From an uncultured Bacteroidaceae bacterium (GTDB taxonomy: Bacteria > Bacteroidota > Bacteroidia > Bacteroidales > Bacteroidaceae), in NCBI GenBank assembly GCA_964404555.1, contig CAYOKO010000002.1, positions 1-36,726 on the forward strand: a stretch of DNA of 36,726 nt. Reading direction: 5' to 3'. Both the position numbers and the translations under genes were made by a program. A model generated the notes under the pieces. It was not told the origin of the DNA. It did not search any database and saw only the letters and a list, made by a program, of their open reading frames with translations. This document shows positions 12,225-26,526 of this stretch, piece after piece; position 1 is the first letter of the stretch; the number at the start of each line of letters is the position of its first letter.

Positions 12225-12998
12225 ATGAAATTTTTAGGAATTATACCTGCACGTTATGCATCTACCCGTTTCCCGGGGAAACCATTGGCTATGCTAGGAG
12301 GTAAAACGGTGATACAGCGTGTTTACGAACAAGTAAAAGGCGTCTTCGACCGTGCCGTGGTGGCAACCGATGACGAACGTATAGAGGCTGCCGTAAAGGC
12401 TTTTGGTGGTGATGTGGTAATGACCCGTGCCGACCACAAAAGCGGTACCGACCGATGCTTCGAAGCTGCTATAAAAGTAGGAGGTGATTACGATGTTGTA
12501 GTCAACATCCAGGGTGATGAACCTTTTATTCAACACAGTCAGCTAGATGCCGTGAAGCATTGCTTCGACGACCCCGATACGCAGATAGCCACCCTCGTAA
12601 AGCCCTTCCGTCCCGAGGATGGATTTGCTGCCTTGGAGAACGTCAATTCTCCCAAGGTTGTGGTCAATGCTCGCAAGCAAGCCATCTACTTCTCTCGCAG
12701 TATCATCCCCTATATGCGCAATCGTGACAAACAAGAATGGCTCGCCCACCACACTTACTATAAGCACATAGGACTTTACGCCTACAAAACCGATGTTCTT
12801 CGCGACATTACCCGTCTGCCACAGTCCTCTCTGGAGATAGCCGAATCACTCGAACAGCTGCGTTGGATAGAGAACGGATACGTTATAAAGGTGGCCGAGA
12901 GTCAGGTGGAGACAATAGGTATAGATACTCCCGAGGACTTGCAGAAAGCCGAGCTTTTCTTGCAAAATTGTTCTAAAAACGGTGGAAATGAGGTCTAA
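12225..12998 (+). CDS. kdsB: 3-deoxy-manno-octulosonate cytidylyltransferase (CMP-KDO synthetase)
   Basis: Has IIPARYASTRFPGKPL and NIQGDEPF, with a length typical of KdsB. Confidence 0.92.
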   Translation: MKFLGIIPARYASTRFPGKPLAMLGGKTVIQRVYEQVKGVFDRAVVATDDERIEAAVKAFGGDVVMTRADHKSGTDRCFEAAIKVGGDYDVVVNIQGDEPFIQHSQLDAVKHCFDDPDTQIATLVKPFRPEDGFAALENVNSPKVVVNARKQAIYFSRSIIPYMRNRDKQEWLAHHTYYKHIGLYAYKTDVLRDITRLPQSSLEIAESLEQLRWIENGYVIKVAESQVETIGIDTPEDLQKAELFLQNCSKNGGNEV

Positions 12999-13045
12999 AT
13001 GTAATAAAGTTCTCTAATCTATTTGTGGGAATCCCAAATTTGGAG

Positions 13046-13053
13046 TAACTTTG
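13046..13053 (+). promoter_or_regulatory. -7 promoter box (TAACTTTG)
   Basis: TAnnTTTG match 33 nt upstream of the ATG at 13086. Confidence 0.35.
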
Positions 13054-13085
13054 GACGTTATAATTATATATAGAAGAAAACTGCT

Positions 13086-14192
13086 ATGAATAAAATATGG
13101 AAAGGTGTGATTGTTTTCTCACTCTTCGCCACATCGATATATGCACAGGAAACCATGACGCTTAATCTCAAGGATGGAAGCGTGTACACCGGTGTTGTGG
13201 TGAGTGGAAAACCACACGGAAAAGGAAAAACTGTCTTTAAGAACGGTGACACCTACGAGGGCGAATACGTAAAAGGTAAGCGTCAGGGACATGGTGTATA
13301 TCGTTTTACCGACGGCGAAAACTACGATGGAGAATGGTTTGCCGACCAGCAACATGGCTTCGGAACCTTCATCTTTAAGAACGGTAACAAATATGTAGGT
13401 CTTTGGTACAAGGACTTCCAGCAAGGTAACGGCGTAATGTACTACTACAATGGCGACAAGTACGAAGGACAGTGGTACGAGGACAAGCGTAGCGGTCAGG
13501 GTATGTACACTTACAGCAATGGTGCCTACTACAAAGGCGAGTGGAAGAATAATCAAAAGAACGGACGGGGTGTCTTCGACTGGCATGATGGTAGCCGCTA
13601 CGACGGTTACTGGCTGAACAATGAGCGCAGCGGAAAAGGTAACTATTACTACTCCGATGGTGATACCTATAAGGGTGATTGGCTCAATGATGTACAGCAT
13701 GGAAAGGGTATCTACGCTTTCCACAATGGTGATAAGTATGAAGGCGACTATGTCAACGGTGAGCGCACCGGACAGGGCATCTTCACCTTTGCCAACGGTG
13801 ATAAGTACGTAGGTCACTTCCAGGAAGGCGAGCGCGACGGAAAGGGGGTATTCTCCTTTGCTAACGGTGCCGTGTACGATGGTTACTGGAAAAAGAACGA
13901 ACGTAATGGTAGTGGTATCTACACTTGGCATACCGGCGACACCTACGAAGGCGGCTGGCGCAATGGAAAGATGGAGGGCGAAGGCATTCTCCGTATGGCC
14001 GATGGTAGTAAATTCAAAGGTGTTTTTCGTGACGGTATGAAGAACGGAAAGGGCATCATGATAGAGAAGGATGGTAAGCGCTTCGAGGGCTATTACCAGA
14101 ACGATGTCAAGAACGGTCCATACGTCCTCAAAGATAAGAACGGTGCCGTTCTCGAAAAGGGAACCTATAAAAATGGATCAGTAGAGAAATAA
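13086..14192 (+). CDS. secreted MORN-repeat protein
   Basis: Signal peptide MNKIWKGVIVFSLFATSIYA|QE followed by about 14 consecutive 23-aa MORN units (Y-x-G-x-W-x3-x-x-x-G-x-G). Confidence 0.85.
   Translation: MNKIWKGVIVFSLFATSIYAQETMTLNLKDGSVYTGVVVSGKPHGKGKTVFKNGDTYEGEYVKGKRQGHGVYRFTDGENYDGEWFADQQHGFGTFIFKNGNKYVGLWYKDFQQGNGVMYYYNGDKYEGQWYEDKRSGQGMYTYSNGAYYKGEWKNNQKNGRGVFDWHDGSRYDGYWLNNERSGKGNYYYSDGDTYKGDWLNDVQHGKGIYAFHNGDKYEGDYVNGERTGQGIFTFANGDKYVGHFQEGERDGKGVFSFANGAVYDGYWKKNERNGSGIYTWHTGDTYEGGWRNGKMEGEGILRMADGSKFKGVFRDGMKNGKGIMIEKDGKRFEGYYQNDVKNGPYVLKDKNGAVLEKGTYKNGSVEK
13185..14153 (+). repeat. about 14 tandem 69-nt (23-aa) MORN repeat units within the CDS
   Basis: Units counted in the translation: YTGVVVSGKPHGKG, YEGEYVKGKRQGHG, YDGEWFADQQHGFG ... 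FEGYYQNDVKNGPY. The boundaries are approximate. Confidence 0.75.
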
Positions 14193-14674: not shown

Positions 14675-16720
14675 ATGGCAACAAAGAAGAAAGTTGAACA
14701 GAAGAAAACACGTCTGGCTCTTGTAAAGAACGACGTGTGGTTGGAACCTTTTGAAGAGGCTATCAACGGGCGTCATCAGCATGCGCTGGACAAGATAAAC
14801 GAACTTACCAACGGTGGTAAGGTGACGCTGAGTGATTTCGCATCCGGATATCTCTATTTCGGACTGCACAGAACAGCTACCGGATGGGTGTTCCGTGAGT
14901 GGGCACCCAATGCTACGGAGATATATCTCATAGGCGAATTCAGTGACTGGAAGGAACTACCACAGTACAAACTGAAGCCTATTAAGAACACCGGCAACTG
15001 GGAAATCAAACTGCGCAAGAACGCACTTCACCACGGTGAACTCTACAAAATGAAGGTTCATTGGGAAGGCGGAGAAGGTGAGCGCATTCCCGCATGGTGT
15101 CGACGTGTGGTGCAGGACGAGAATACCAAGATCTTCAGCGCACAGGTGTGGGATCCCGAGAAACCTTATGAGTTCAAGAAGAAAACCTTCAAACCCACTA
15201 CCGATCCACTCCTTATATATGAGTGTCACGTGGGTATGGGACAGGATGCCGAGAAGGTAGGTTCCTATCGTGAATTTCGCGAGAATGTACTTCCTCGTGT
15301 GGCTGCCGACGGATACAACTGTATCCAGATTATGGCCATTCAGGAGCATCCCTATTATGGAAGCTTCGGCTACCACGTATCCAGTTTCTTTGCCGCTTCC
15401 AGTCGCTTCGGCACTCCCGAGGAGTTGAAGGAGCTCATCGATGCTGCTCATGGTATGGGTATAGCTGTGATTATGGATATTGTTCACTCACACGCCGTTA
15501 AGAACGAAGTAGAGGGACTGGGTAATCTGGCTGGAGACCCCAATCAATATTTCTATCCCGGCGACCGTCACGAGCATCCGGCATGGGACAGCCTCTGCTT
15601 CGACTACGGTAAAAATAATGTCCTCCACTTCTTGCTCTCCAACTGTAAGTTCTGGTTGGACGAGTATCACTTCGACGGATTCCGTTTCGATGGTGTCACC
15701 TCCATGCTCTACTACAGTCACGGACTGGGACAAGCCTTCGGCGGATATGGCGACTATTTTAACGGTGGTGAAGATGACAACGCCATTTGCTATCTTACCC
15801 TTGCCAACATACTGATACACGAGGTGAAGCCATCTGCTATCACCATAGCCGAGGAGGTATCCGGAATGCCCGGACTTGCTACATCGTTCAAGAATGGCGG
15901 ATACGGATTTGACTACCGTATGGCTATGAACATCCCCGATTACTGGATAAAGTTAATCAAGGAGCAAACCGACGAAAACTGGAAACCATCATCCGTGTTC
16001 TGGGAGGTGACCAACCGTCGTGTCGATGAGAAAACCATCTCCTATTGTGAGAGCCACGACCAAGCCCTTGTAGGCGATAAGACCATCATCTTCCGCTTGA
16101 TAGATGCCGATATGTATTGGCACTTCAAGAAAGGCGATGAAAACGAAATGGTACATCGTGGCATAGCCTATCACAAGATGATACGCTTGCTCACCGCTTC
16201 TACTATCAACGGCGGATACCTTAATTTCATGGGTAACGAGTTCGGTCATCCCGAATGGATAGACTTTCCGCGAGAAGGCAATGGATGGAGTTACAAGTAC
16301 GCCCGTCGTCAGTGGAACCTTGTAGACAATAAGGATCTATGTTTCCACTATCTAGGTGATTTCGATAAAGCCATGCTTCAGGTACTCAAGAGCGTCAAGA
16401 AGATACAGAAGACCCCTGTACAGGAAATATGGCACAACGATGGCGACCAGATATTGGCATATAAGCGTGACGACCTTGTGTTCGTATTCAACTTCAGCCC
16501 TAATCGTTCCTACACCGATTACGGTTTTATGGTACCGGAAGGTGCCTACGACATCGTTCTCAACACCGATGCTTCCGCTTTTGGCGGTAATAACTTGAAT
16601 GATGACAGCATACGTCATTTCACCAATTTCGATCCACTCTTGAAGAAAGACGGCAAGGGATGGTTGCAGCTCTATCTGCCCGCCCGCAGTGCCGTAGTTT
16701 TGAAAAAAGTAAAAGAATAA
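14675..16720 (+). CDS. glgB: 1,4-alpha-glucan branching enzyme (GH13)
   Basis: GH13 catalytic motifs DIVHSH, DGFRFDGVTSM, AEEVSGMP and ESHDQALVGDK. Confidence 0.9.
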   Translation: MATKKKVEQKKTRLALVKNDVWLEPFEEAINGRHQHALDKINELTNGGKVTLSDFASGYLYFGLHRTATGWVFREWAPNATEIYLIGEFSDWKELPQYKLKPIKNTGNWEIKLRKNALHHGELYKMKVHWEGGEGERIPAWCRRVVQDENTKIFSAQVWDPEKPYEFKKKTFKPTTDPLLIYECHVGMGQDAEKVGSYREFRENVLPRVAADGYNCIQIMAIQEHPYYGSFGYHVSSFFAASSRFGTPEELKELIDAAHGMGIAVIMDIVHSHAVKNEVEGLGNLAGDPNQYFYPGDRHEHPAWDSLCFDYGKNNVLHFLLSNCKFWLDEYHFDGFRFDGVTSMLYYSHGLGQAFGGYGDYFNGGEDDNAICYLTLANILIHEVKPSAITIAEEVSGMPGLATSFKNGGYGFDYRMAMNIPDYWIKLIKEQTDENWKPSSVFWEVTNRRVDEKTISYCESHDQALVGDKTIIFRLIDADMYWHFKKGDENEMVHRGIAYHKMIRLLTASTINGGYLNFMGNEFGHPEWIDFPREGNGWSYKYARRQWNLVDNKDLCFHYLGDFDKAMLQVLKSVKKIQKTPVQEIWHNDGDQILAYKRDDLVFVFNFSPNRSYTDYGFMVPEGAYDIVLNTDASAFGGNNLNDDSIRHFTNFDPLLKKDGKGWLQLYLPARSAVVLKKVKE

Positions 16721-17877
16721 TGAGTAAATCAATGTCACACAGAAAGATGGCCGCAAATATAAATCGCATACTTTGCGGTTCTCTTTTTGTGGCATTTTGT
16801 TTTTGCTATCTGTATAAGTTCCAGTGCGATATATTGACAACGGCACAGTATGTCCTGTCGCACGGAAAAACCTCTTACTCCCCCCTTTGGGGAGCCATTA
16901 TCCTAACCGTAGTTTTTGCGGTAGTTCAGGTAGTGATACAACGCCTCCTACATTTTCGGAGCAGCTTCTATGCGCTTTCCTATTTTCCCTCACTGCTCTT
17001 GTTGCTCATGGTAAGCCACTTCAATCAGGGCATCTTCGAGGGATTTGTATTCAGTCGCCATGCTCTGGGCATGATGTTGTCGTCGTTGCCTGTTGCACTC
17101 TTCTTTGGATGGGGTATACGAATGTTACACCGTCACAGACCGCTTAACCTTTACGGTATGTTAGGGTCTAATCTCACAATTATGTTGGTGTTTCTTGCCT
17201 TCTTCATGTCGCAAGCCAACACCGATGAACTTTTTCATTACAACTCCCGTGTGGAGCGACTGCTCCTCAATGGACGCTGTAACGAAGCACTCATGATAGG
17301 TCGTCACTCCTCTGTCACCGGACGCGAGCTTACGGCTATGCGAGCCTTTGCTCTGAATCGTACTCATCGAATGGGTGACGAACTCTTTGACTATCCCCAG
17401 TGCTATGGCAGCCGAGCTCTTCTGCCACAATGGAGCGATACCGCCGTTATGTTCTTCGACATCAAGTCCATCTACGTAAGTCTCGGAGCCTTGCCGTCGG
17501 GTAGGGGATTTCGGGTAAAAGGATTCGTTGATCAAATCCTTGCCCTCGATACCCTGAATACCAACCGTCGTGCTGCTGACTATGCCCTCTGTGCCTCCCT
17601 CTTGGATCGCAGATTGGATACCTTCGCCGAGATACTTCCCCGTTACTACATCATAAACGACTCCCTTCCTCGTCACTACAAAGAGGCATTGGTACTCTAT
17701 AACCAACTGGCAGAAGCCCCCATAGTAGAATACGAGGATGAAACACTGCAAGAGAAACTTGTAAGTATGCACATAATGGAGGACACTCTCCATACCGTCC
17801 GCCGTCGTTACAACCTCACTCGCGAGACCTATGGCGACACCTACTGGTGGTATTACTACTATCAAAAAGAGAATTAA
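16720..17877 (+). CDS. polytopic membrane protein of unknown function
   Basis: The ATG at 16720 shares its A with the glgB TAA (TAATG). About 5 predicted TM helices are followed by a roughly 200-aa soluble domain ending ...GDTYWWYYYYQKEN. No family can be assigned by eye. Confidence 0.6.
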   Translation: MSKSMSHRKMAANINRILCGSLFVAFCFCYLYKFQCDILTTAQYVLSHGKTSYSPLWGAIILTVVFAVVQVVIQRLLHFRSSFYALSYFPSLLLLLMVSHFNQGIFEGFVFSRHALGMMLSSLPVALFFGWGIRMLHRHRPLNLYGMLGSNLTIMLVFLAFFMSQANTDELFHYNSRVERLLLNGRCNEALMIGRHSSVTGRELTAMRAFALNRTHRMGDELFDYPQCYGSRALLPQWSDTAVMFFDIKSIYVSLGALPSGRGFRVKGFVDQILALDTLNTNRRAADYALCASLLDRRLDTFAEILPRYYIINDSLPRHYKEALVLYNQLAEAPIVEYEDETLQEKLVSMHIMEDTLHTVRRRYNLTRETYGDTYWWYYYYQKEN

Positions 17878-17881
17878 ACCT

Positions 17882-20800
17882 ATGAAGATGTGTAGCTTGT
17901 GGGCACTGTTACTCTCCTTGTCGGTTCTCTTGTGTGGCTGTAGTGGAGAGCAAGATTCTAAGGTTGACGACCAACTATTACGCGCCGCTCAATCTTACGA
18001 ACAGGGGCATTGTGCTGCCGCCCTATCTCTAGCAGACAGCATTTCCGAAGGTTCCGACAATCAGTTTCACCTCCTGCAAGCCGACCTGCTTGCCATGCGC
18101 ATCTATATAACCACCGCTGCCAACGAAGCCTTTTGTCGTCGACGCAACAGTGCTCGTATGCGCATACAAATGATTTGCGAGGAACGTAACACTCTCTCCG
18201 ATGCACAGAAACAACGATACGACTCCCTACAGCTAGTTTACCATCTTTATTCCTATTTATATTATCGCAATGTTCACATGATGGAGCGTGTCGGCAATGA
18301 ACTCTCATCCCTCAGCTCACTGGAGGTTCTCACCCCCGATACTACGTTGCGTATTCGTTCCCGCCTCGTCACCGCATCCGATTCACTCTCCCTACGTGAC
18401 TACATTCCCTGGTGTCGTATCCACAACCATTGGCAGTTGGAGGGCGAACTCCTCATGCACGAGGCACGTTATGCCATAACCGAGCGCGATACGCTCACGG
18501 CACTCCTTAATGCCGAACAAGCGTGTCAACTCTTTGAACAATTAGGCAATCCATATCTGCGAGCCGAGAGTATGTGTTACATGGCACACCTCTACACCCG
18601 CAACAATGCACCTGTCATAGCCATAGACTATCTCAACGATGCACTGAATATTCTAGATACTATCTGTCAGGCTGACACCCTATCCACCCCTCTGCCACTC
18701 CTGGCAGATATTCGTGAGGAACTGAGTGTGGCGTACGCCTCTCTGGGCGATAAGCAGCAGAGCGACTATAACCGCAACCTCTACTTAGACATTCTAGATC
18801 TTTCGCGGCAAGATAAGGAAACGGAGAGTCGTTATGCACAGCTTCAACAGATTCATCAGCTCAACCTCTATATGCTGTTGGGCTTGTTCCTCCTTATCCT
18901 CTTGTTAATAGGATCGCTCACTCTGTTTCATCGTCTATGGAACCGTCGTAATCGCAGAGAAGCTCTGCGTATGGCAAACACCTCTCGCTACTGCCACGCC
19001 CTGCTCTCCGGTGAGCAACCGGAGCGTCCCGCAGACATCATTGTGCCACTGGTAGAGCCCTATGAACAGTGGGCACAGAGTAGGCACGATGCCAGCGAAC
19101 AGCAGGAAGAGAAACGTATGGAACTGGAGGAACAGTTGGCAGTACTCGGTAGCAAGAAGAGTGCGTCGCTGGAGAAGAATCTGGAGAAACGATCGCAAGT
19201 GGGCGTACTCGAGGTGATGATGCCAAACATAGAACGACTCTGTTACACCGTAGACCGATTGCGTAGCGATGGCGCAAACGCATCACAGGAGGAGTATGCC
19301 GGAGAGTTGGCAGACTGCATCTATAGTTATAATGAGATACTGGGTAACTGGATTAAAATGCAACGAGGCGAAGTGGCTCTCCGTCTGGAAACCTTCCCGC
19401 TGCAAAATATTTTTCAAGATCTGGCACGTGCTTCGGAGCGTTTCGAGGCAGACCACCTTACCCTCACGGTGCAACCCACCGATGTACGAGTAAAGGCAGA
19501 TAGTGCTCTCACCTTTTTTATGCTCAATACGCTCAGCGAAAACGCCCATAAGTTTACACCTCCCGGAGGCACCGTTACCATATCTGTCACTGAGGCAACG
19601 GACAATTATGTAGAGGTATCTGTAGCCGATACAGGAGTAGGCATCTCACCGGAGGATGTAGAAAAACTCATGAACGAGAAAGTCTATGATTCATCTACCG
19701 TAGGGCAGGGCACCGTGGATAAGAGTAAGAAAGGCTACGGATTCGGCATTATGAATTGTAAGGGAATCATCCATAAGTACATAAAGAGCGGTTCTATCTT
19801 CTCCGTCTGTACCTTTGGCGTAGAGAGTGAACCGGGCAAGGGGAGTAGGTTCTACTTCCGTCTACCCCGGGTGCTCACGTGGGTGTTTGCCCTTTTCATA
19901 GGTACATTATTGCCGTCGAAGGCAGCTCAGCCATCGCTCCGTCAGCAGATAAATCAGCTCACGGATTCCTGTTACTATAGCAATATTCGTGGTACCTACG
20001 AGCAGACGGTGGCATTTGCCGACAGTACACTCACACTCTACAATCGCTATACAGAGCAAATATTGGGACAACCGCTCACCGCTTCCCACCGTTTGGTACT
20101 CCTAGGCGATGATCACGAAACAGCTCCCGAGTGTGAGGGGGTGCGCCGAGGATACAATATAGACTACACGCCGCTGCTCTCCATACGCAACGAAGTGGCA
20201 GTCGCAGCGCTGGCGCTGCAGGACTTGTCGCTCTATGCTTATAACAACGAAGTCTATCAAGACCTCTATCACCTACTTTCGCAAGATCGAAAGTTGGATG
20301 ACACCTGCGAACGTCTGGATGGTTCCAATCACAATATACACGTATGGTGCATCCTCATGATTCTCATTCTGATAGCCATTCCCATAGCCTATTATTTCTG
20401 TCTGATACACAGTCGTATGCTGTATCGTTTCGAAGTAGCACGCATGATGGAGATAAACCGTCGCATCCTCGAATTGGCATCGCAACAAAAGGACTTGGAA
20501 CCGCTTCTCACCGGTATCATGGAAGCATATTGCGGACTGAGTGATATTCGCAGTATGTCACTTTATTTACCTCCCGTAGACGGACGTAATAAGCTCCTCC
20601 TAACCTCAGGCAACGAGGTAGATGAGATTACGGAACATAGCCTGGCGGTATGTATAGAAGAATGTACGGAATATCGTTCCCGTGAATTCTGTTGCTTCCC
20701 CCTCATCGCCTTTGATAGGTGTGTGGGAAGTGTAGCATTCCGTTTTGAAAAACAACCCTCCGAAACGCTTCAGACAGTGCTTCGAAGTAACACGTTGGAA

Positions 20801-21586
20801 CTCTTGTCTCACCTGCTCTACCACGCCCTTCTGCATCATCGCACAGGCGAAGAAGATATAGATACTTTGCAAAATAGCGTATGGCAACTCACCTACGAGG
20901 AATACAGACTCTACACCGAGAATATGATTCTGGACAACTGTCTCTCCTCCATCAAGCACGAAACTATGTACTATCCCGCATTGATGAAGCGTATGTTACA
21001 AAAGCGTGACACGTTACGTTCGCAAGAAGATTGGCAGTCGTTATTCGAAACCGTTGATTTTTATCGCCGTGTGTTCAATATACTTTGTACACGTGCCCAC
21101 CGTCAGATGGAGTACGCTCTCCTGCGTCCCGTATCACTCTCTCCGTCCTGGGTGCAGCAAGAGGTGCAGCGCATCTACAAGAGTTGTAATCGCAAGCATA
21201 GGGTGGAGGTGCAATTGAAGGTAGAGCTTCCGGAAGAGGCCGTCACTTTTCTGGGAGATTCATCGTGTGTGGCGTATCTCTTGCGCTTATGTGTGGAGGC
21301 GCTTCATGTACAGTGTGAAGGTGAGCTTACGTTGCAAGTTGCCCGTCATGCAGGCATGGTAAAAATAGCTATAGGTATGCCCGGTGGCAGTTGGCAGCAG
21401 GAAGAGCTAGACCGTCTCTTTTACCCAGCCGAGGAGCACATACCCTATTTAATAATGAGACAAATCGTCCGTATGCACGACGACTTCTTCGATTTCCGGG
21501 GATGTCGCATAGTAGCGCAGGCACGTGAAACGGGCGGATATGATATTTGGTTTACTTTAGTTGAAGAGAAATATGCAAAAATTTGA
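17882..21586 (+). CDS. large multi-domain sensor histidine-kinase-like protein (lipoprotein-type signal, three TM segments, HATPase_c, GAF-like, second kinase-like module)
   Basis: The ATG at 17882 gives MKMCSLWALLLSLSVLLCGCSG. TM segments lie at about 18863-18928, 19871-19915 and 20339-20407. The catalytic domain has an N box LSENAHKFTP, G1 DTGVGI and G2 GYGFGI. A downstream H-box-like SSIKHETMYYP is also present. Confidence 0.75.
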   Translation: MKMCSLWALLLSLSVLLCGCSGEQDSKVDDQLLRAAQSYEQGHCAAALSLADSISEGSDNQFHLLQADLLAMRIYITTAANEAFCRRRNSARMRIQMICEERNTLSDAQKQRYDSLQLVYHLYSYLYYRNVHMMERVGNELSSLSSLEVLTPDTTLRIRSRLVTASDSLSLRDYIPWCRIHNHWQLEGELLMHEARYAITERDTLTALLNAEQACQLFEQLGNPYLRAESMCYMAHLYTRNNAPVIAIDYLNDALNILDTICQADTLSTPLPLLADIREELSVAYASLGDKQQSDYNRNLYLDILDLSRQDKETESRYAQLQQIHQLNLYMLLGLFLLILLLIGSLTLFHRLWNRRNRREALRMANTSRYCHALLSGEQPERPADIIVPLVEPYEQWAQSRHDASEQQEEKRMELEEQLAVLGSKKSASLEKNLEKRSQVGVLEVMMPNIERLCYTVDRLRSDGANASQEEYAGELADCIYSYNEILGNWIKMQRGEVALRLETFPLQNIFQDLARASERFEADHLTLTVQPTDVRVKADSALTFFMLNTLSENAHKFTPPGGTVTISVTEATDNYVEVSVADTGVGISPEDVEKLMNEKVYDSSTVGQGTVDKSKKGYGFGIMNCKGIIHKYIKSGSIFSVCTFGVESEPGKGSRFYFRLPRVLTWVFALFIGTLLPSKAAQPSLRQQINQLTDSCYYSNIRGTYEQTVAFADSTLTLYNRYTEQILGQPLTASHRLVLLGDDHETAPECEGVRRGYNIDYTPLLSIRNEVAVAALALQDLSLYAYNNEVYQDLYHLLSQDRKLDDTCERLDGSNHNIHVWCILMILILIAIPIAYYFCLIHSRMLYRFEVARMMEINRRILELASQQKDLEPLLTGIMEAYCGLSDIRSMSLYLPPVDGRNKLLLTSGNEVDEITEHSLAVCIEECTEYRSREFCCFPLIAFDRCVGSVAFRFEKQPSETLQTVLRSNTLELLSHLLYHALLHHRTGEEDIDTLQNSVWQLTYEEYRLYTENMILDNCLSSIKHETMYYPALMKRMLQKRDTLRSQEDWQSLFETVDFYRRVFNILCTRAHRQMEYALLRPVSLSPSWVQQEVQRIYKSCNRKHRVEVQLKVELPEEAVTFLGDSSCVAYLLRLCVEALHVQCEGELTLQVARHAGMVKIAIGMPGGSWQQEELDRLFYPAEEHIPYLIMRQIVRMHDDFFDFRGCRIVAQARETGGYDIWFTLVEEKYAKI

Positions 21587-22298
21587 TGTTGTAGTGGTAG
21601 AAGATGTTCGTCTGGAATTGAAAGGAACATTGGAGATCTTGCGAACCGATATACCGGAGGCGAATGTTATAGGAACGGCGTCTACGGAGGCTGAATTCTA
21701 TAAGTTATTGGATAGCGGAGTCGTTCCTCAGCTCCTGCTTCTGGATTTGGGGTTAGGTGGTTCCACGGCAGTAGGTGTGGACATCTGTCGCAAAACGCGT
21801 GTACAGTTTCCAACGCTTCGTATCCTCATCTTCACAGGTGAGTTGTTGAACGAGAAAATCTGGGTAGATGCACTGGATGCAGGTGCTAACGGCGTCATTC
21901 TCAAAAGCGGCGAATTACTTACGCGTGCGGATGTTATGGCAGTCATGGAGGGACGTGAGAATGTGTTCAACCAACCCATTCTAGAGAAGATTACGGAGCG
22001 TTTCAAACAAGAAGTACGTTCGGAGTCTTTTAAGCGTGATGCGGCAATAAATTACGATATCGATGAGTACGATGAGCGTATGTTGCGTCATCTGGCTTTG
22101 GGATATACAAAGGAGATGATAGCATCGCTCAAGGGGATGCCGTTTGGTGTGAAGAGCCTGGAGAAACGTCAGAACGACCTGGTATCTCGTCTTTTTCCCG
22201 GAGGAGAACGTTCGGGTGTGAATGCCACCCGCTTGGTGGTTCGTGCGTTGCAGTTAAATATTATAGACCTCAACAATTTGGAACCCGACGATGAATAA
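21573..22298 (+). CDS. response regulator, REC domain plus LuxR/GerE-like HTH (NarL/FixJ type)
   Basis: MQKFDVVVVED..., receiver Asp in LLLLDLGL, then IFTGE and ILKSG. The C-terminal segment ERMLRHLALGYTKEMIASL...VKSLEKRQNDLVSRL is a divergent GerE-type HTH. The gene overlaps the kinase gene by 14 nt. Confidence 0.8.
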   Translation: MQKFDVVVVEDVRLELKGTLEILRTDIPEANVIGTASTEAEFYKLLDSGVVPQLLLLDLGLGGSTAVGVDICRKTRVQFPTLRILIFTGELLNEKIWVDALDAGANGVILKSGELLTRADVMAVMEGRENVFNQPILEKITERFKQEVRSESFKRDAAINYDIDEYDERMLRHLALGYTKEMIASLKGMPFGVKSLEKRQNDLVSRLFPGGERSGVNATRLVVRALQLNIIDLNNLEPDDE

Positions 22299-22899
22299 GT
22301 GGTGTGGTTGGTTCTCTCTGTTCTTGTTTCTGCTCACCGTATTACTGGTAGTGGGTTCATGGATCTTGTCGGCGTGGGGATATTCCGTAAGGGGTATCCT
22401 GCAGCCGGAAGGTATTCGTTGGCTTTTTGTAGTATTGCCGCAGGTGTGGACTATAAGTGTTACGGGACTGCTAATTCTGCTTTTCAGTGCAATAGGATGT
22501 ATAGAGAATAGCGGATTGTGGAGTATTCTTCGATACTACCTGTGTAGAACCATGGAACGACCCAATTATCGTCAACGTTTAGCATTTAAGTGGAGTATTT
22601 TCTTTTGGGTGTTATCCTTATTGCCATTTTTCTTATTGTCATTCACCCCACATTCATTATTATTGAGCGTGTCGGGCAATTTGTGGCACGGGTCACCCTT
22701 TATAGCATCGTTGCCGTATGTTATGATATGGTCTTTTCAAGTCCAATCGTTGCTATACGGAATGTTGTGTGGTAAGGTTACCACGTTGCCACGTATCATG
22801 CAACTCCTTACGCAAGGCATAGTGCGTTTTGCTCCACTTCTAGTACTATACTTACAAGCAAGACTCTTGTTCGTAATATACCGGTATGTGGCGGGTTGA
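22291..22899 (+). CDS. small polytopic membrane protein of unknown function
   Basis: 202 aa with about 5 TM helices, overlapping the regulator stop by 8 nt (ATGAATAA). The segments GILQPEGIRWLF and IENSGLWSIL faintly recall the N-terminus of AbgT-family transporters, which is a very tentative comparison. Confidence 0.55.
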   Translation: MNKWCGWFSLFLFLLTVLLVVGSWILSAWGYSVRGILQPEGIRWLFVVLPQVWTISVTGLLILLFSAIGCIENSGLWSILRYYLCRTMERPNYRQRLAFKWSIFFWVLSLLPFFLLSFTPHSLLLSVSGNLWHGSPFIASLPYVMIWSFQVQSLLYGMLCGKVTTLPRIMQLLTQGIVRFAPLLVLYLQARLLFVIYRYVAG

Positions 22900-23760: not shown

Positions 23761-26526
23761 TTACTCCTTTGCTATATCTTGAATCTGCTCCTCTATGATA
23801 CCCGTACGCTGCTTCGCCTCCTCGTGCCTCTCCAAGCGTGCTTCGATTTGAGCCAACTGTTTACGAATCTCCTCACCGTTCTTTTGGAGTTCTTGAAGCG
23901 TCGTCTTCAGGCTCTCACGTGTAGAATCCTCCGTTTCCGTACCACGTGTTTGCGGAGCATAGATGTTATTCTTCCACTCCACGAGTGCATTACGTGCGCT
24001 TTTCTCTATCTCCTCGGCCTTCTGCATCTGCACTGTAGTTTTCATAGTCTCCTTGCGCATTGTGTACCAGTCCGTATCCGAACGATAGGTACGTTCCAAT
24101 TCCGCAAACTGTACCGGCGGATGGTTGGCATTGAAGCGGTTCATCCACATATCCAATTTGGAACGCAGTGTCATTGTCTCCTGCTCCTGCCACTGTTGCT
24201 GTTGCAGCAATGTAGTACTCTGTCCCAACGTCTGCAACAAGTACTCGTTGGCACTATCGTAAGCACTGCGACACTTTACACGCTCCCGGCTCAGTTTATC
24301 CTTTTGCTCCGTCAGCTCCTTGAGATGTTCCTTAGGATCCTTCTCGCCCATAATCTCCGAGTATGTCTCCTTCTTATTGTTCAAGAGGAAGATTAACTTA
24401 CTCTTAGCATCATCCTGAGTAGCAATGTTTTGCTCAATCATTTCCAGTTGTGATGCAATCCCCTTGAGTTGCGCATCCAGTCCAGCCAACTCTACATCAA
24501 GCTTTTGTATCTGTTCCAGAAGCTTGTACCACTGAGACGACTTCTCCTGCATATTCATACGGAAGGACTCACTATTCTCCAACCACTCGGCATGCCAGTT
24601 GGCAAGCGTCATGTCGTGCTCCAGGTCGCTGTACAACTTGGAATACTCATCGCTCATCTTCTTAAGGCGAAGTTTCTCCTCCTCCACCAATCCCGAGAAC
24701 ACCTGACAAGCCGTGTTCAGCTCATTCAGTCCCACACGATTCTCATCACGTCTGCGCTCCAACTCGGAAATCTGTTCGTTCAATTGGTTGATGTTATCTT
24801 GATGGTAGGTGAAGTTCTCCATATTCTTATGCGCCTCCTCCGCCTGTCGGATAGTATTGTCCTGCAGTTGATGCAACATGATGGAACGAGCGTCACGATT
24901 CACCGATTCCGAGCAATCGGCAAAAGCCTCTCCCAGAAAATCGAAATCCTTCCACTGCTCCTTATCCTCGTTCAGCTGCAACCTCGCCGTCTGTATAGCC
25001 ATCTCCAGTTGCTCCATAACACCCCGTTCGTGTGCATGTTCCACCTCACTTTCGTACAGCATCTTCTCCTTCTGTTTCAAAAGAGCCTGTCCCTCCTCGA
25101 AGTCGCGTCCCAAAGCCTTCTGTAGGACACCCAGTGCCTGCTCCGTTTCCGAGTGATAGGGGTGATGCGTAGCACCACAAACAGAACAACTACACCCCTC
25201 GCGCAAATCCTGTCGCAGCAACGACACATCCTGACTCTTGCTCAGTGTATAAGCATATTTCTGCTGTTCGCAATTCTCACGCAGCGGACCTATGATACGG
25301 CGCATCTGCTCTATGTTCTGTTCCTCCGTCTGGTAGTGCAGACGAGTGCGATTCATCTCCTGAGTCTTCTCCTCCAAGAAATCATAGCACCTACAGATAC
25401 GCGCCCACACAAACGAAGCCCGTCGCAACATATTCTGTTGCAACGCCAGGTCAAAAGCACGCTTCTGTATGCTGTTCAAGTCCTGTCCGTGTATAGCCTC
25501 CTTGTGGATAAACAACTTCTGAGTGAGGTTGGACAGTTCGCTCTTCATATCCTGATCCTTGCGGAATAAATTATTGAGAGCCACATTATTAACCTCATAT
25601 TCACGCTGTTTACGGTCGAACTCGTTCTGTGCTGCCTCCGTATTTCGGCGCAGCACCTCCAGTCGGTTCAACTTCACCTGCAACATCGAAATATTCTCCA
25701 GCACATAGCGGTGAGGCACCAACACCTGCTGATCCTGCGTAGCCTGTTCACGCTTGCGCATAGTCTCTTGTCTACGCTTCTCCACTTCCTCCTGCTCCTT
25801 CAGCGCCGTCAGTCGGTCACCGTCCAGTTTACTCAGATTCTCCGTTATGGCCTCAATACGCAGTTCACACGTATTGATTTCACCCAGAAGCTCCAGTCCG
25901 GCATTCATGCGCTGCTGTACCGCACGAATCTCCAAGTCGGTGGTATTCTCCATACGCTCCTTATCCAGATATTCGTTGCGGAGTTGAGACACCGTCCCCT
26001 GCAACTCCTGTGCCAACTTATGCTTCGAACCCTGCTCCTGTTGAACCTGTGCCAGAAGATCCGTCATGATAAGAATCTTTTGGAACAAGCCATGCACCTT
26101 CTCGAACCGGTCGAAGCGATCCACCGCTTGTCGTTCGGTCTCCTGCTTCGTGTACTCCTGCAGCACCTTGCATTTTTCAGCCGTCGCCGCCTCTACAAGA
26201 GCGATGAGTTGGTCGTATCGGTCGAACCATTGCAAGCGATGATGCGTATTTTCAATATCCCTTTCTACGCTATCCAGTTTCGTCCTCAGCAGTTGTTGCA
26301 TCTCCAGGATGTGCTTCATGCTGGCATCCGTCAGCACCTCCTGCTTAGTACGTTGCAAGGCAAATTCCGCCTTTGCCAGTTTGCGGAACAGTCCCTCCAC
26401 CTCCGGAGACAACTCCGTACCGGTCTTCTCCTCGTACTTCTCCTTAGCGATATTATCTACCGACATCTGCTCCGTTTCCGGAGTCTTTTTATTGCTATTT
26501 TTATCTTGTTTCCAGAATAATTTCAT
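23761..26526 (-). CDS. 921-aa coiled-coil protein with a central SbcC/Rad50-like zinc-hook motif and no ATPase head domains
   Basis: E/Q/K/L/R-rich throughout. The single Cys cluster CSCSVCGATHHPYH lies at residues 445-458 (nt 25153-25194). No GxxxxGK[ST] motif is present anywhere. The stop TAA (23761-23763) is 1 nt from the downstream ATG (23757-23759). Confidence 0.75.
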   Translation of the reverse strand: MKLFWKQDKNSNKKTPETEQMSVDNIAKEKYEEKTGTELSPEVEGLFRKLAKAEFALQRTKQEVLTDASMKHILEMQQLLRTKLDSVERDIENTHHRLQWFDRYDQLIALVEAATAEKCKVLQEYTKQETERQAVDRFDRFEKVHGLFQKILIMTDLLAQVQQEQGSKHKLAQELQGTVSQLRNEYLDKERMENTTDLEIRAVQQRMNAGLELLGEINTCELRIEAITENLSKLDGDRLTALKEQEEVEKRRQETMRKREQATQDQQVLVPHRYVLENISMLQVKLNRLEVLRRNTEAAQNEFDRKQREYEVNNVALNNLFRKDQDMKSELSNLTQKLFIHKEAIHGQDLNSIQKRAFDLALQQNMLRRASFVWARICRCYDFLEEKTQEMNRTRLHYQTEEQNIEQMRRIIGPLRENCEQQKYAYTLSKSQDVSLLRQDLREGCSCSVCGATHHPYHSETEQALGVLQKALGRDFEEGQALLKQKEKMLYESEVEHAHERGVMEQLEMAIQTARLQLNEDKEQWKDFDFLGEAFADCSESVNRDARSIMLHQLQDNTIRQAEEAHKNMENFTYHQDNINQLNEQISELERRRDENRVGLNELNTACQVFSGLVEEEKLRLKKMSDEYSKLYSDLEHDMTLANWHAEWLENSESFRMNMQEKSSQWYKLLEQIQKLDVELAGLDAQLKGIASQLEMIEQNIATQDDAKSKLIFLLNNKKETYSEIMGEKDPKEHLKELTEQKDKLSRERVKCRSAYDSANEYLLQTLGQSTTLLQQQQWQEQETMTLRSKLDMWMNRFNANHPPVQFAELERTYRSDTDWYTMRKETMKTTVQMQKAEEIEKSARNALVEWKNNIYAPQTRGTETEDSTRESLKTTLQELQKNGEEIRKQLAQIEARLERHEEAKQRTGIIEEQIQDIAKE

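Follow-up and report, generated by a model that had tools for sequence, protein, structure and literature searches.

In EnvZ/Taz1, subunits mutated in the phospho-acceptor His and subunits mutated in the ATP site reportedly complement each other in vitro, the His-less subunit, whose CA domain is live, phosphorylating the His of its CA-dead partner in a DHp bundle of four helices. EnvZ has also been split into DHp and CA fragments, according to work cited in PMC3591291. Two genes share the task in Rhodobacter sphaeroides, where CheA4 phosphorylates CheA3 in trans (PMC3591291, PMC6829392); in that pair, the protein with the His lacks a functional kinase domain, and the protein with the kinase domain lacks the His. 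Other proteins, such as the histidine pseudokinase DivL (PMC4211667) and RetS (PDB 6dk7), have kept the histidine-kinase fold for regulation after loss of the His or of catalysis.

The locus described here lies in a window of 36,726 nucleotides, the whole stretch of DNA that was analysed, on contig CAYOKO010000002.1 of an uncultured Bacteroidaceae bacterium. An uninterrupted ORF on the + strand (17882-21586; 1234 aa; P0001) encodes a membrane sensor which, judged from its sequence, is built from two copies of one histidine kinase. CheA3 and CheA4 are class II, soluble and receptor-coupled proteins, whereas P0001 is class I and membrane-bound and is encoded by a single ORF; its halves are paralogous complete sensor-DHp-CA units, each with a periplasmic domain, and the defective parts have been retained instead of deleted. 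The EnvZ/Taz1 pairs are laboratory mutants of a homodimer, but the arrangement in P0001 is natural, family-wide, covalent and joined through a membrane excursion. DivL and RetS, both of which were also retrieved as structural and sequence matches, act on separate partner kinases; the halves of P0001 are pseudo-halves of different kinds, which in combination seem to reconstitute a single active kinase. P0001 has the complementary defects of a split kinase, with both halves in one ORF and not on separate polypeptides in all genomes examined. Our literature search found no paper describing the tandem kinase family.

Architecture of the tandem kinase

The features of the locus are as follows.

17882-17941, + strand: lipoprotein-type signal peptide (lipobox L-C-G-C; hydrophobic residues 1-22)
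17942-18859, + strand: periplasmic domain 1 (residues 21-326), DUF5112 followed by a partial DUF5113
18860-18931, + strand: TM1 (residues 327-350; Kyte-Doolittle peak up to 2.75; AF2 helix)
19043-19351, + strand: DHp1, a His-less helical hairpin (alpha1 residues 388-463, alpha2 residues 467-490)
19388-19870, + strand: CA1, an intact HATPase_c domain (Pfam 6e-19; kinase CA matches in the PDB)
19871-19933, + strand: TM2, short and signal-peptide-like, directly after the last CA1 strand (preceded by FRLPR, reading VLTWVFALFIGTLLPSKAA, followed by Q)
19937-20398, + strand: periplasmic domain 2, DUF5113 (residues 686-839; all-helical in AF2)
20336-20410, + strand: TM3 (residues 819-843; Kyte-Doolittle peak up to 2.81; AF2 helix)
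20495-20836, + strand: cytoplasmic PAS/GAF-like alpha/beta domain (residues 872-985; AF2 pLDDT 81-95)
20852-21109, + strand: DHp2 hairpin (alpha1 residues 991-1040, alpha2 residues 1048-1076; AF2)
21128-21583, + strand: CA2, a degenerate HATPase_c fold, pseudo-ATPase (AF2 pLDDT >90; hhalign to CA1)
21573-22298, + strand: cognate NarL/LuxR-type response regulator (P0002; Response_reg and DUF5932), overlapping the kinase stop by 14 nt
22291-22899, + strand: short AbgT-family-like membrane protein (202 aa), overlapping the regulator stop by 8 nt

The domain order of P0001 is therefore lipoprotein signal, DUF5112/TPR-like, TM1, DHp1, CA1, TM2, DUF5113, TM3, PAS/GAF-like, DHp2 and CA2. Pfam recognises DUF5112 (46.2 bits), HATPase_c (68.9 bits) and DUF5113 (166.4 bits) in this order, all above their gathering cut-offs (29.4, 26.4 and 27.1 bits, respectively), and the same architecture is common to the homologues. 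A previous sequence-only reading of this DNA had suggested the two DUF families, correctly according to Pfam; it had also placed TM1, and a loop bracketed by TM2 and TM3, where the present analysis finds them. Kyte-Doolittle profiles and AF2 helices locate both kinase modules in the cytoplasm, and the two periplasmic domains are homologous.

The N-terminus, MKMCSLWALLLSLSVLLCGC, consists of n- and h-regions followed by a lipobox and matches the lipoprotein pattern [LVI][ASTG][GAS]C, a motif-based call. The motif LLCGC, noticed before, corresponds to residues 16-20, and its Cys20 (codon 17939-17941) is invariant among 38 homologues. DUF5112 (residues 47-156; Pfam E 5e-12) is TPR-like, and the family profile finds TPR matches in the PDB. 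The first DUF5113 copy of P0001 is partial and runs into TM1 (nt 18671-18934; E 1.2e-20), but is of full length in relatives; the second copy is matched by Pfam at 6.9e-49 and in a profile search of the genome at 9.4e-30. The GAF-like segment suspected beyond TM3 is modelled by AF2 as a PAS/GAF-like domain of beta-beta-alpha-beta-beta-beta topology. Foldseek alignments to chains of LOV kinases and phytochrome kinases cover about 400 columns. Compact Prevotella forms of about 990 aa do not contain the PAS/GAF-like domain.

Catalytic motifs and paralogy of the two units

Conservation was counted in an alignment of 82 homologues, except for Cys20 (n=38), the His count at the Glu444 site (n=141) and the TM2 lipobox (n=152). 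In unit 1, AF2 models the DHp1 hairpin, with a pLDDT of 84-95, followed by an alpha/beta domain; the H-box position reads VLEVMMP (residues 442-448, nt 19205-19225). When the module-1 profile is aligned with DHp and CA of WalK (E 3e-13), the His of WalK comes to lie on Glu444 (Pro448 minus 4), and the alignment with module 2 gives the same equivalence. Hence the sequence-only reading was right that DHp1 has no His, but its choice of Leu443 as the acceptor-equivalent does not stand: this residue (Pro minus 5) occupies a buried hydrophobic position that is Val in 73/82 homologues. The Glu444 site itself varies across the family (N/T/Y/E/S/D; His in 5/141). Among the 82 homologues, the module-1 cytoplasmic segment contains no conserved-His column, in keeping with the earlier failure to see another H box there; the best column, residue 425, reaches 72 % His among homologues, with Lys in P0001. 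CA1, on the other hand, is as complete as had been proposed (N box LSENAHKFTP, 551-560; G1 DTGVGI, 583-588; G2 GYGFGI, 618-623), and N554, D583, G585, G587, G618, G620 and G622 are each present in 82/82 homologues.

CA1 also resembles another Bacteroidales kinase, Porphyromonas gingivalis FimS (NCBIfam NF053520; E 3.6e-16, residues 487-663). We rejected orthology, given a score of 58 bits against a cut-off of 600 bits and the organisation of FimS as a single unit of 618 aa. The periplasmic sensor of FimS contains TPR, and domain 1 of P0001 is TPR-like too.

The pattern in unit 2 is reversed. Of the three refuting conditions set beforehand (a conserved acceptor His in module 1, intact ATP-binding residues in module 2, no DHp/CA fold in module 2), none came true. 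The second module does have such a fold: the AF2 model (pLDDT 85) is a sensor-DHp-CA structure, Foldseek returns 341 matches at E<=1e-3 with full histidine kinases at the top (E down to 2e-12), and the module-2 profile matches the CA domain of ThkA (1.7e-7). The predicted H box SSIKHETMYYP is found at residues 1022-1032, with His1026 encoded at 20957-20959. Its motif K-H1026-E-T-x-Y-Y-P occurs in all sequences examined, H1026, E1027 and P1032 being present in 82/82; compared with the usual spacing it has one additional residue before the Pro (H-E-x-x-x-x-P). In the AF2 model, His1026 sits 14 residues ahead of the end of helix 1, which is kinked at the Pro. HisKA, HisKA_2 and HisKA_3 gave no match at E<=1 in P0001, in unit 2 of 42 relatives or in unit 1 of 32 relatives.

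The ATP-binding residues of CA2 are not intact across the family, as the earlier description of a dead second ATPase implied. In P0001, the N-box site reads CVEALHV (1137-1143) and the G1 site IGMPGGSW (1164-1171); family-wide, Glu or Ala takes the place of the N-box Asn, a G1 Gly has become Arg in 70/82, and there is no longer a G2 box. The G1 Asp is kept in 71/82 homologues and missing in the P0001 clade, in which the whole ATP lid is deleted as well. Pfam HATPase_c matches CA2 in 34/42 relatives (best E 1.6e-8), P0001 itself being unmatched. Since CA2 has kept the G1 Asp and can still be recognised as HATPase_c in most relatives, it may bind nucleotide residually outside the P0001 clade. 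CA2 furthermore has a conserved motif of its own, Q1194…R1197-x-H1199-D…G1207-C-R1209. Of the features that define a class I histidine kinase, the DHp hairpin with an alpha/beta-sandwich CA fold is thus found in both units, the H-box His in unit 2 only, and the N, G1 and G2 boxes in unit 1 only.

What relates the two units is homology over their entire length. An hhalign comparison of unit 2 with unit 1 (probability 99.6 %, E 2.7e-24) extends over 509 columns that span periplasmic domain, TM, linker, DHp and CA; the DHp and CA halves alone reach 96-98 %. DUF5113 matches twice within the one ORF in this genome, and its copies are of full length in relatives. Such end-to-end homology indicates that an entire sensor kinase was duplicated in tandem, after which the halves degenerated reciprocally. 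This reciprocal pattern of His and ATP site is not due to chance, and it is identical in the divergent Prevotella forms of about 990 aa.

Downstream regulator and distribution

The gene that overlaps the kinase stop had been taken for a regulator, and its product indeed has a receiver domain (Response_reg, Pfam 3.7e-9) with acceptor Asp58 and a C-terminal LuxR-type HTH. It matches DevR (3c3w; 3.2e-8) and VraR (2.7e-7) in alignments reaching into the HTH region; the NCBIfam matches to NarL/NarP are below their cut-offs. The acidic pocket is complete (Glu10/Asp11/Asp58). Asp58 aligns with the Asp in VLDV of DevR, the phospho-acceptor Asp54 of that protein. A NarL-type regulator lies directly downstream of the kinase in 72/73 loci, with 62-74 % identity. 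The 202-aa protein encoded next reaches the cut-off of Pfam ABG_transport (1.5e-6); an AbgT-family gene follows the regulator in 56/80 loci, of full length (484 aa) in Bacteroides and in the short form of about 200 aa elsewhere.

The tandem kinase gene is present in single copy in 158/201 Bacteroidaceae genomes and 31/35 genera, i.e. in most members of the family (Bacteroides, Phocaeicola, Prevotella relatives), and absent from the rest of the order outside Bacteroidaceae. Such a single-copy presence indicates long-term selection, and the complementary design is universal in this near-core gene. The source MAG is fragmented (229 contigs, 77 % complete), which could suggest an assembly chimera, a frameshift fusion or a decaying pseudogene; with an intact ORF free of internal stops in all of those 158 genomes, closed chromosomes included, and strongly conserved motifs in both halves, we reject this reading as having a negligible chance of being true.

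Proposed phosphoryl route and possible internal processing

We consider it probable that P0001 is a tandem-duplicated, reciprocally decayed kinase in which a phosphoryl group passes from ATP on CA1 to His1026 of DHp2 and on to Asp58 of the adjacent regulator. The ancestor would have consisted of a lipoprotein-type signal, a periplasmic helical DUF5113 sensor, TM, (PAS/GAF), DHp and CA; its gene would have been duplicated head to tail and then fused, the first copy bearing an additional N-terminal, TPR-like DUF5112. Unit 1 would have lost the phospho-acceptor His and retained a complete ATP-binding CA, and unit 2 would have retained the invariant His1026 next to a CA2 unable to bind ATP canonically, with CA2 and DHp1 presumably kept as structural or regulatory parts. 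Because the His is lost in one copy and the ATP site in the other, the halves probably must cooperate, and phosphorylation between modules is the simplest reading of the conservation pattern. Trans-phosphorylation would most simply occur via a DHp1/DHp2 helical bundle that mimics an ordinary kinase homodimer; the phosphorylated regulator would then control transcription, and its targets may include the downstream AbgT-family gene. With a periplasmic domain in either half, a single output could be under the control of two extracytoplasmic inputs. The precedent of complementary half-kinases, CheA4 phosphorylating CheA3 (PMC3591291, PMC6829392), supports this reading. When unit 1 is included in the AF2 model, the pLDDT of DHp2 rises from about 54-83 to 77-92 (the two alignments differ slightly, 75 vs 82 sequences), that of the PAS/GAF-like domain is slightly lower and that of CA2 about the same; the rise is an indirect hint and would fit a packing of DHp2 against unit 1. 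Against the proposed route it counts that CA1 is membrane-tethered on either side, with its final strand passing directly into TM2, which may limit its reach; that, in the AF2 model, the hairpin of DHp1 extends about two turns further below the H-box position than that of DHp2; that HisKA is unmatched; and that CA2 has a residual signal in relatives.

A role of unit 2 mainly as phosphatase or scaffold appears improbable to us. The regulator would then be phosphorylated by another donor, e.g. another kinase or acetyl phosphate, and CA1 would not phosphorylate His1026 but serve as an ATP-dependent regulatory or sensing module. Repurposed pseudokinases such as DivL (PMC4211667) exist, DivL and RetS are among the Foldseek matches, and the strong conservation of the CA2-specific motif suggests a distinct function; however, it is difficult to see why the His in its K-H-E…Y-P context and all catalytic residues of CA1 should be invariant across the family if there were no catalysis and phosphotransfer, the H box reads H-E-T-x-Y and not H-E-x-x-T/N with canonical phosphatase spacing, and the kinase-regulator pair is strictly syntenic. 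Still more remote is a model in which non-canonical ATP binding by CA2 serves to phosphorylate His1026 of the same unit, with unit 1 acting only as a modulating DivL-like pseudokinase. It would account for the HATPase_c score of CA2 in 34/42 relatives (best E 1.6e-8) and for the G1 Asp kept in 71/82, but not for the invariance of every CA1 ATP-site residue, and it conflicts with the G1 Gly to Arg change (70/82), the missing G2 box and the replacement of the Mg-binding Asn by Glu or Ala; the EnvZ variant N347D is said to be kinase-dead. Moreover, the P0001 clade has neither ATP lid nor G1 Asp in CA2, yet retains the gene and the His.

TM2 starts at residue 664 (nt 19871) with a weak, short hydrophobic stretch and is the least confident AF2 segment of P0001 (pLDDT 45-56); the median uncharged run is 17 residues, compared with 20 in TM1 and 23 in TM3. 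A basic n-region (KGVRK) is followed by a short h-region and a lipobox, whose Cys is found after the FRLP motif in 80/152 relatives (vs 5.9 % of control windows), 18-23 residues beyond it in 72 of those 80. As TM2 resembles an internal signal peptide, P0001 may be cleaved into two subunits. It is possible, though unlikely in our estimation, that P0001 is such a precursor, cut at the periplasmic face by way of a true signal peptide, of the lipoprotein type in most genera and of the signal-peptidase-I type in the P0001 clade; the products, formed 1:1, would be one subunit that binds ATP but has no His and another with the His and a pseudo-ATPase, and the phosphoryl route would be the same. Apart from the layout, shortness and low model confidence of TM2, this is favoured by S/A-x-A followed by A, which replaces the Cys in the P0001 clade, by A-x-A-like sites in most other members, and by unit 1, whose own lipoprotein signal implies one in the ancestral unit. 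The Bradyrhizobium japonicum FbcH cytochrome b/c1 polyprotein, an unrelated bacterial membrane protein relevant only to cleavage, is cut at a signal sequence in its interior, giving two subunits of a single complex. On the other hand, the lipobox could be left over from the fusion, or act as a lipid anchor without cleavage, its Cys is missing in about 40-47 % of family members including P0001, the A-x-A motif is weak and frequent by chance, and we know of no established case of signal peptidase II cutting at an internal site. If TM2 were cleaved, P0001 would represent a natural split class-I kinase. The signal-peptide likeness of TM2 had escaped the sequence-only reading, as had the paralogy of the whole units, periplasmic domain included, and the family-wide occurrence of the design.

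The two units of the kinase

The open reading frame of the kinase gene starts with the ATG at 17882, stops at 21586 (forward strand) and encodes a product of 1234 aa; a second in-frame ATG is located upstream, at 17831, where it overlaps the preceding gene. The motifs that a sequence-only reading had quoted from this protein were all found where it had placed them. Pfam and hydropathy give the following features (residue numbers of the protein):

N terminus to Cys20: lipoprotein-type signal (hydropathy)
47-156: DUF5112 (Pfam)
327-350: TM1, strong (hydropathy)
547-663: HATPase_c (Pfam, E 6e-19)
664 to about 678 (window 19871-19933): TM2, short and weak (hydropathy)
686-839: DUF5113 (Pfam, E 7e-49)
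819-843: TM3, strong (hydropathy)

No Pfam match was obtained for residues 840-1234. According to the topology set by the signal and TM1-TM3, the two kinase-like regions face the cytoplasm and the two DUF regions the periplasm. The N-terminal half (unit 1) comprises a first periplasmic domain that includes DUF5112, TM1, DHp1 and CA1; unit 2 comprises DUF5113, TM3, a PAS/GAF-like domain, DHp2 and CA2. Since Pfam and NCBIfam scans of the query and its relatives returned no HisKA-type match at E<=1 in either unit, the DHp regions were assigned from profile, fold and internal homology. Compared with the family alignment, the query clade represents a reduced form: the protein has 1234 instead of 1400-1500 aa, the first periplasmic domain is shortened and holds only a partial first copy of DUF5113, and the linker between TM1 and DHp1 is about 70 residues shorter.

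The two units are homologous over most of their length. Profiles of residues 985-1234 and 400-663 align end to end (hhalign 96-98 %, E 1e-9 to 1e-12); when the full family alignment is used, unit 2 (TM2 to C terminus) is matched to the last two thirds of unit 1 in an alignment of 509 columns (99.6 %, E 2.7e-24) that takes in the periplasmic domain, TM helix and linker as well as DHp and CA. Furthermore, the Pfam model of DUF5113 matches twice inside the query ORF, and relatives contain two full-length matches within single ORFs of 1400-1500 aa. Judged from this homology and the double DUF5113, the gene is a head-to-tail duplicate of a complete sensor-kinase gene, including the signal, the periplasmic DUF5113, the TM helix and the cytoplasmic DHp-CA part; unit 1 additionally carries the TPR-like DUF5112 (TPR matches) at its N terminus. 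A length-restricted search with unit 2 alone retrieved no unduplicated single-unit ancestor, only fragments at contig ends and compact two-unit forms of about 990 aa.

In public annotation the kinase is named only 'DUF5113/DUF5112 domain-containing protein' and its regulator 'DUF5932 domain-containing protein'. A literature search on DUF5112, DUF5113 and DUF5932 yielded no phenotype, ligand or description, and one unrelated mention. The kinase is a member of a catalogued but uncharacterised Pfam architecture; there seems to be no earlier description of its reciprocal half-kinase design, of the duplication of a whole unit as its origin, of its near-core status among Bacteroidaceae or of the signal-peptide-like TM2.

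Reciprocal degeneration and the proposed phosphate route

Residues were counted in 82 aligned homologues with 28-85 % identity, and further counts were made on about 150 unique sequences from proteins and fetched loci. The ATP site of CA1 (N554; D583, G585 and G587; G618, G620 and G622) is the same in 82 of 82 homologues, and the H box of DHp2, K-H1026-E-[TS]-x-[YF]-Y-P, is invariant in the family. When the DHp1 profile is aligned with the DHp and CA structure of WalK (E 3e-13), the phospho-His of WalK corresponds to Glu444, four residues N-terminal of the invariant Pro448, and the internal alignment of the two units concurs. The family has N, T, Y, E, S, D or L at this position, and His in 5 out of 141 sequences. 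The sequence-only reading was right that DHp1 lacks the phospho-acceptor His, but the equivalent site is not Leu443, where it had been placed; this is a buried hydrophobic position, occupied by Val in 73 of the 82 homologues. Across these homologues, no column of the unit-1 cytoplasmic segment holds a conserved His. Residue 425, the column richest in His, was considered as an alternative acceptor of unit 1 and rejected: it is His in 72 %, Lys in the query, and Arg, Gln or Asn elsewhere.

In CA2, the position of the N-box Asn is occupied by Glu in 51, Ala in 20 and Asn in 2 of the 82 homologues. The G1 box keeps its Asp in 71/82, with Arg at one Gly position in 70/82, and the G-x-G-x-G of the G2 box has become G-T-E-Y-L. 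Decay has gone further in the query clade, where the G1 Asp is lost and the entire ATP-lid/G2 segment deleted; hence CA2 matches HATPase_c in 34 of 42 relatives, but not in the query. CA2 also has a near-invariant motif of its own (Q1194, R1197, H1199, D1200, G1207-C-R1209), which implies that it was retained for some function. The same reciprocal pattern is found in the most divergent members, Prevotella forms of about 990 aa without the PAS/GAF domain. Both halves of the sequence-only reading, a His-less DHp joined to a live ATPase and a His-bearing DHp joined to a dead one, are thus supported: the first module holds no conserved phospho-acceptor His, and the ATP-binding residues of the second are replaced at the N, G1 and G2 positions.

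The fold of unit 2 was predicted with AlphaFold2 for residues 845-1234 (75-sequence alignment, mean pLDDT 85.4). The model begins with a small alpha/beta PAS/GAF-like domain, followed by a long helix, kinked at the Pro, with His1026 14 residues before its end, a return helix, and an alpha/beta sandwich with pLDDT above 90. Foldseek found 341 matches in the PDB at E<=1e-3; the best ones are complete sensor-DHp-CA kinases (YF1, 4gcz, 2e-12; a bacteriophytochrome kinase; WalK; CpxA; HK853), and known degenerate relatives, i.e. the plant phytochrome HKRD, DivL and RetS, are also included. The unit-2 sequence profile matches kinase CA domains directly (ThkA, 3a0t, 1.7e-7), so that model, structure search and profile all bear out the DHp/CA fold claimed for the second module. 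In a model of both units (AlphaFold2, residues 300-1234, 82 sequences, pLDDT 84.1, pTM 0.57), DHp1 is predicted with confidence as a hairpin (helices 388-463 and 467-490, pLDDT 84-95), DUF5113 is all-helical, and TM2 is the segment of lowest confidence (pLDDT 45-56). For the DHp2 helices, pLDDT is 54-83 when unit 2 is modelled by itself and 77-92 in the two-unit model, while the PAS/GAF-like domain falls slightly and CA2 is about unchanged; the rise is an indirect hint that DHp2 may gain a packing partner from unit 1.

We presume that ATP is bound by CA1, which would phosphorylate His1026 on DHp2, and that His1026 would hand the phosphate to Asp58 of the regulator. DHp1 and DHp2 could form an internal pseudo-dimer, bringing CA1 to His1026 in the trans-phosphorylation geometry of homodimeric kinases, and this pseudo-dimer might dimerise further. 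This route, whose steps are inferred, is the sole arrangement that uses every invariant catalytic element, and it is probably correct; since neither half has given up its periplasmic domain, a single output could be under the control of two inputs. Less likely, unit 2 is a phosphatase or scaffold for the regulator, which would receive its phosphate from another donor; the CA2 motif would suit some such role, and the invariant ATP site of CA1 would have no part in supplying His1026. It is also less likely that CA2 keeps residual activity, with unit 1 as a DivL-like modulator. In favour of this, the G1 Asp persists in most homologues; against it, the other ATP-binding positions are mostly replaced, and CA1 is the half with the intact site. 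An artefact or pseudogene is excluded, for DUF5113 occurs in 158 of 201 genomes of the same taxonomic family (31 of 35 genera), nearly always with two matches per ORF. The original observation is confirmed, and its interpretation finds support to the extent that evidence from sequence, profile and fold can give it.

Histidine kinases are normally symmetric homodimers, in which pairs of engineered mutants were needed to distinguish cis from trans phosphorylation; complementation of a His-mutant by an ATP-site-mutant subunit is reportedly classical for EnvZ/Taz1, of which the present kinase would be a natural counterpart. Its family seems to be a natural case in which the trans arrangement has become fixed: one half would supply ATP only and the other accept phosphate only, each wired to its own periplasmic domain. 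The family would thereby offer a ready-made system in which to study signal integration and the directionality of autophosphorylation, in hosts that include dominant gut bacteria amenable to genetics, among them Bacteroides thetaiotaomicron. In its proposed complementary halves, the kinase parallels the split kinase CheA3/CheA4 (PMC3591291, PMC6829392).

The TM2 segment as a putative internal signal peptide

The last strand of CA1 (ending in FRLP) is followed by a basic stretch, KGVRK, and a short hydrophobic run. A canonical lipobox with Cys is present in the TM2 segment of 80 out of 152 relatives, compared with 5.9 % of control windows, and in 72 of these 80 the Cys lies 18-23 residues C-terminal of FRLP. 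Most remaining members have A-x-A-like sites, the query clade S/A-x-A|A. The median uncharged run is 17 residues in TM2 versus 20 in TM1 and 23 in TM3. TM2 thus looks like a segment with the anatomy of a signal peptide. Unit 1 opens with a lipoprotein signal, so that such a signal was evidently present in the ancestral unit too. That it has survived within the fused protein in distant genera points to lipidation, and perhaps to processing into two subunits.

We consider it rather unlikely that the protein is a true polyprotein, with TM2 a functional internal (lipo)protein signal peptide cut by signal peptidase at the periplasmic face. The cytochrome b/c1 polyprotein FbcH of Bradyrhizobium is a precedent for such cleavage. 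If it occurred, one gene would yield two membrane subunits at a fixed stoichiometry of 1:1. One would be the His-less half, anchored by lipid and binding ATP, and the other the (lipid-anchored) pseudo-ATPase half with the His. Together they would make up an obligate heteromeric histidine kinase of class I in which the inputs of two periplasmic sensors are integrated; a single ORF giving two membrane proteins would be rare among bacteria.

Distribution and neighbouring genes

Bacteroidaceae carry the kinase gene in single copy, as a near-core gene. In a sample of the order, DUF5113 is found in 6 of 301 genomes at E<=0.001, three of them over the Pfam cut-off and all three from the same family (the genome of the window and two relatives); in a phylum sample, only the window's own genome exceeds the cut-off (1/301), with one further weak match. 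Bacteroides thetaiotaomicron, from the control set, is positive. Kinase loci were recorded from Bacteroides, Phocaeicola, Paraprevotella, Mediterranea, Caecibacteroides and Prevotellaceae. The contigs of loci L016, L026, L037, L052 and L069, which carry this Bacteroidaceae-specific pair of kinase and regulator, are labelled Coprobacillus, Alistipes ihumii, Methanomethylophilaceae archaeon, Clostridium and Acutalibacteraceae; these are probably mis-binned metagenome contigs.

In the window, the kinase has the following neighbours:

12225-14192: kdsB-like cytidylyltransferase and 10-repeat MORN protein, upstream of the kinase
16720-17877: DUF6057 membrane protein, after the glgB stop and separated from the kinase start by 4 nt
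21573-22298: response regulator with receiver domain and DUF5932 (Pfam), overlapping the kinase stop by 14 nt
22291-22899: AbgT-like membrane protein of 202 aa, overlapping the regulator stop by 8 nt and matching only the family middle (profile positions 253-349 of 502)

Of 73 loci that extend far enough to include it, 72 have the regulator immediately after the kinase. It is similar to DevR and VraR, and its Asp58 occupies the acceptor position. This highly conserved partner of a near-core kinase is 62-74 % identical across genera versus 28-34 % for the kinase (loci L011-L090 of relatives), which indicates that the output is much more tightly constrained than the sensor. An AbgT-family gene is located 3' of the regulator in 56/80 loci, at full length (484 aa) in Bacteroides and as a form of about 200 aa elsewhere, including the window; as these short forms recur in other genera, they represent a conserved truncated variant and no local accident. 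A search of the literature on AbgT, Bacteroides and two-component systems found nothing relevant.

Among the 80 related loci, only that of the closest relative (L011) has the DUF6057 gene ahead of the kinase; the gene is therefore outside the conserved cassette. The kdsB-like and MORN genes also adjoin the kinase locus of Bacteroides faecalis (L054; 79 % and 52 % identity); hence synteny reaches beyond the cassette, and glgB and DUF6057 are insertions here. Further downstream, the minus strand (23761-26526) encodes a 921-aa protein for which neither a Pfam match at E<=1e-3 nor apparent Walker motifs in its N-terminal region were found; it is highly charged, apparently coiled-coil, and has a central, zinc-hook-like motif, C-S-C-S-V-C-G-A-T-H-H.
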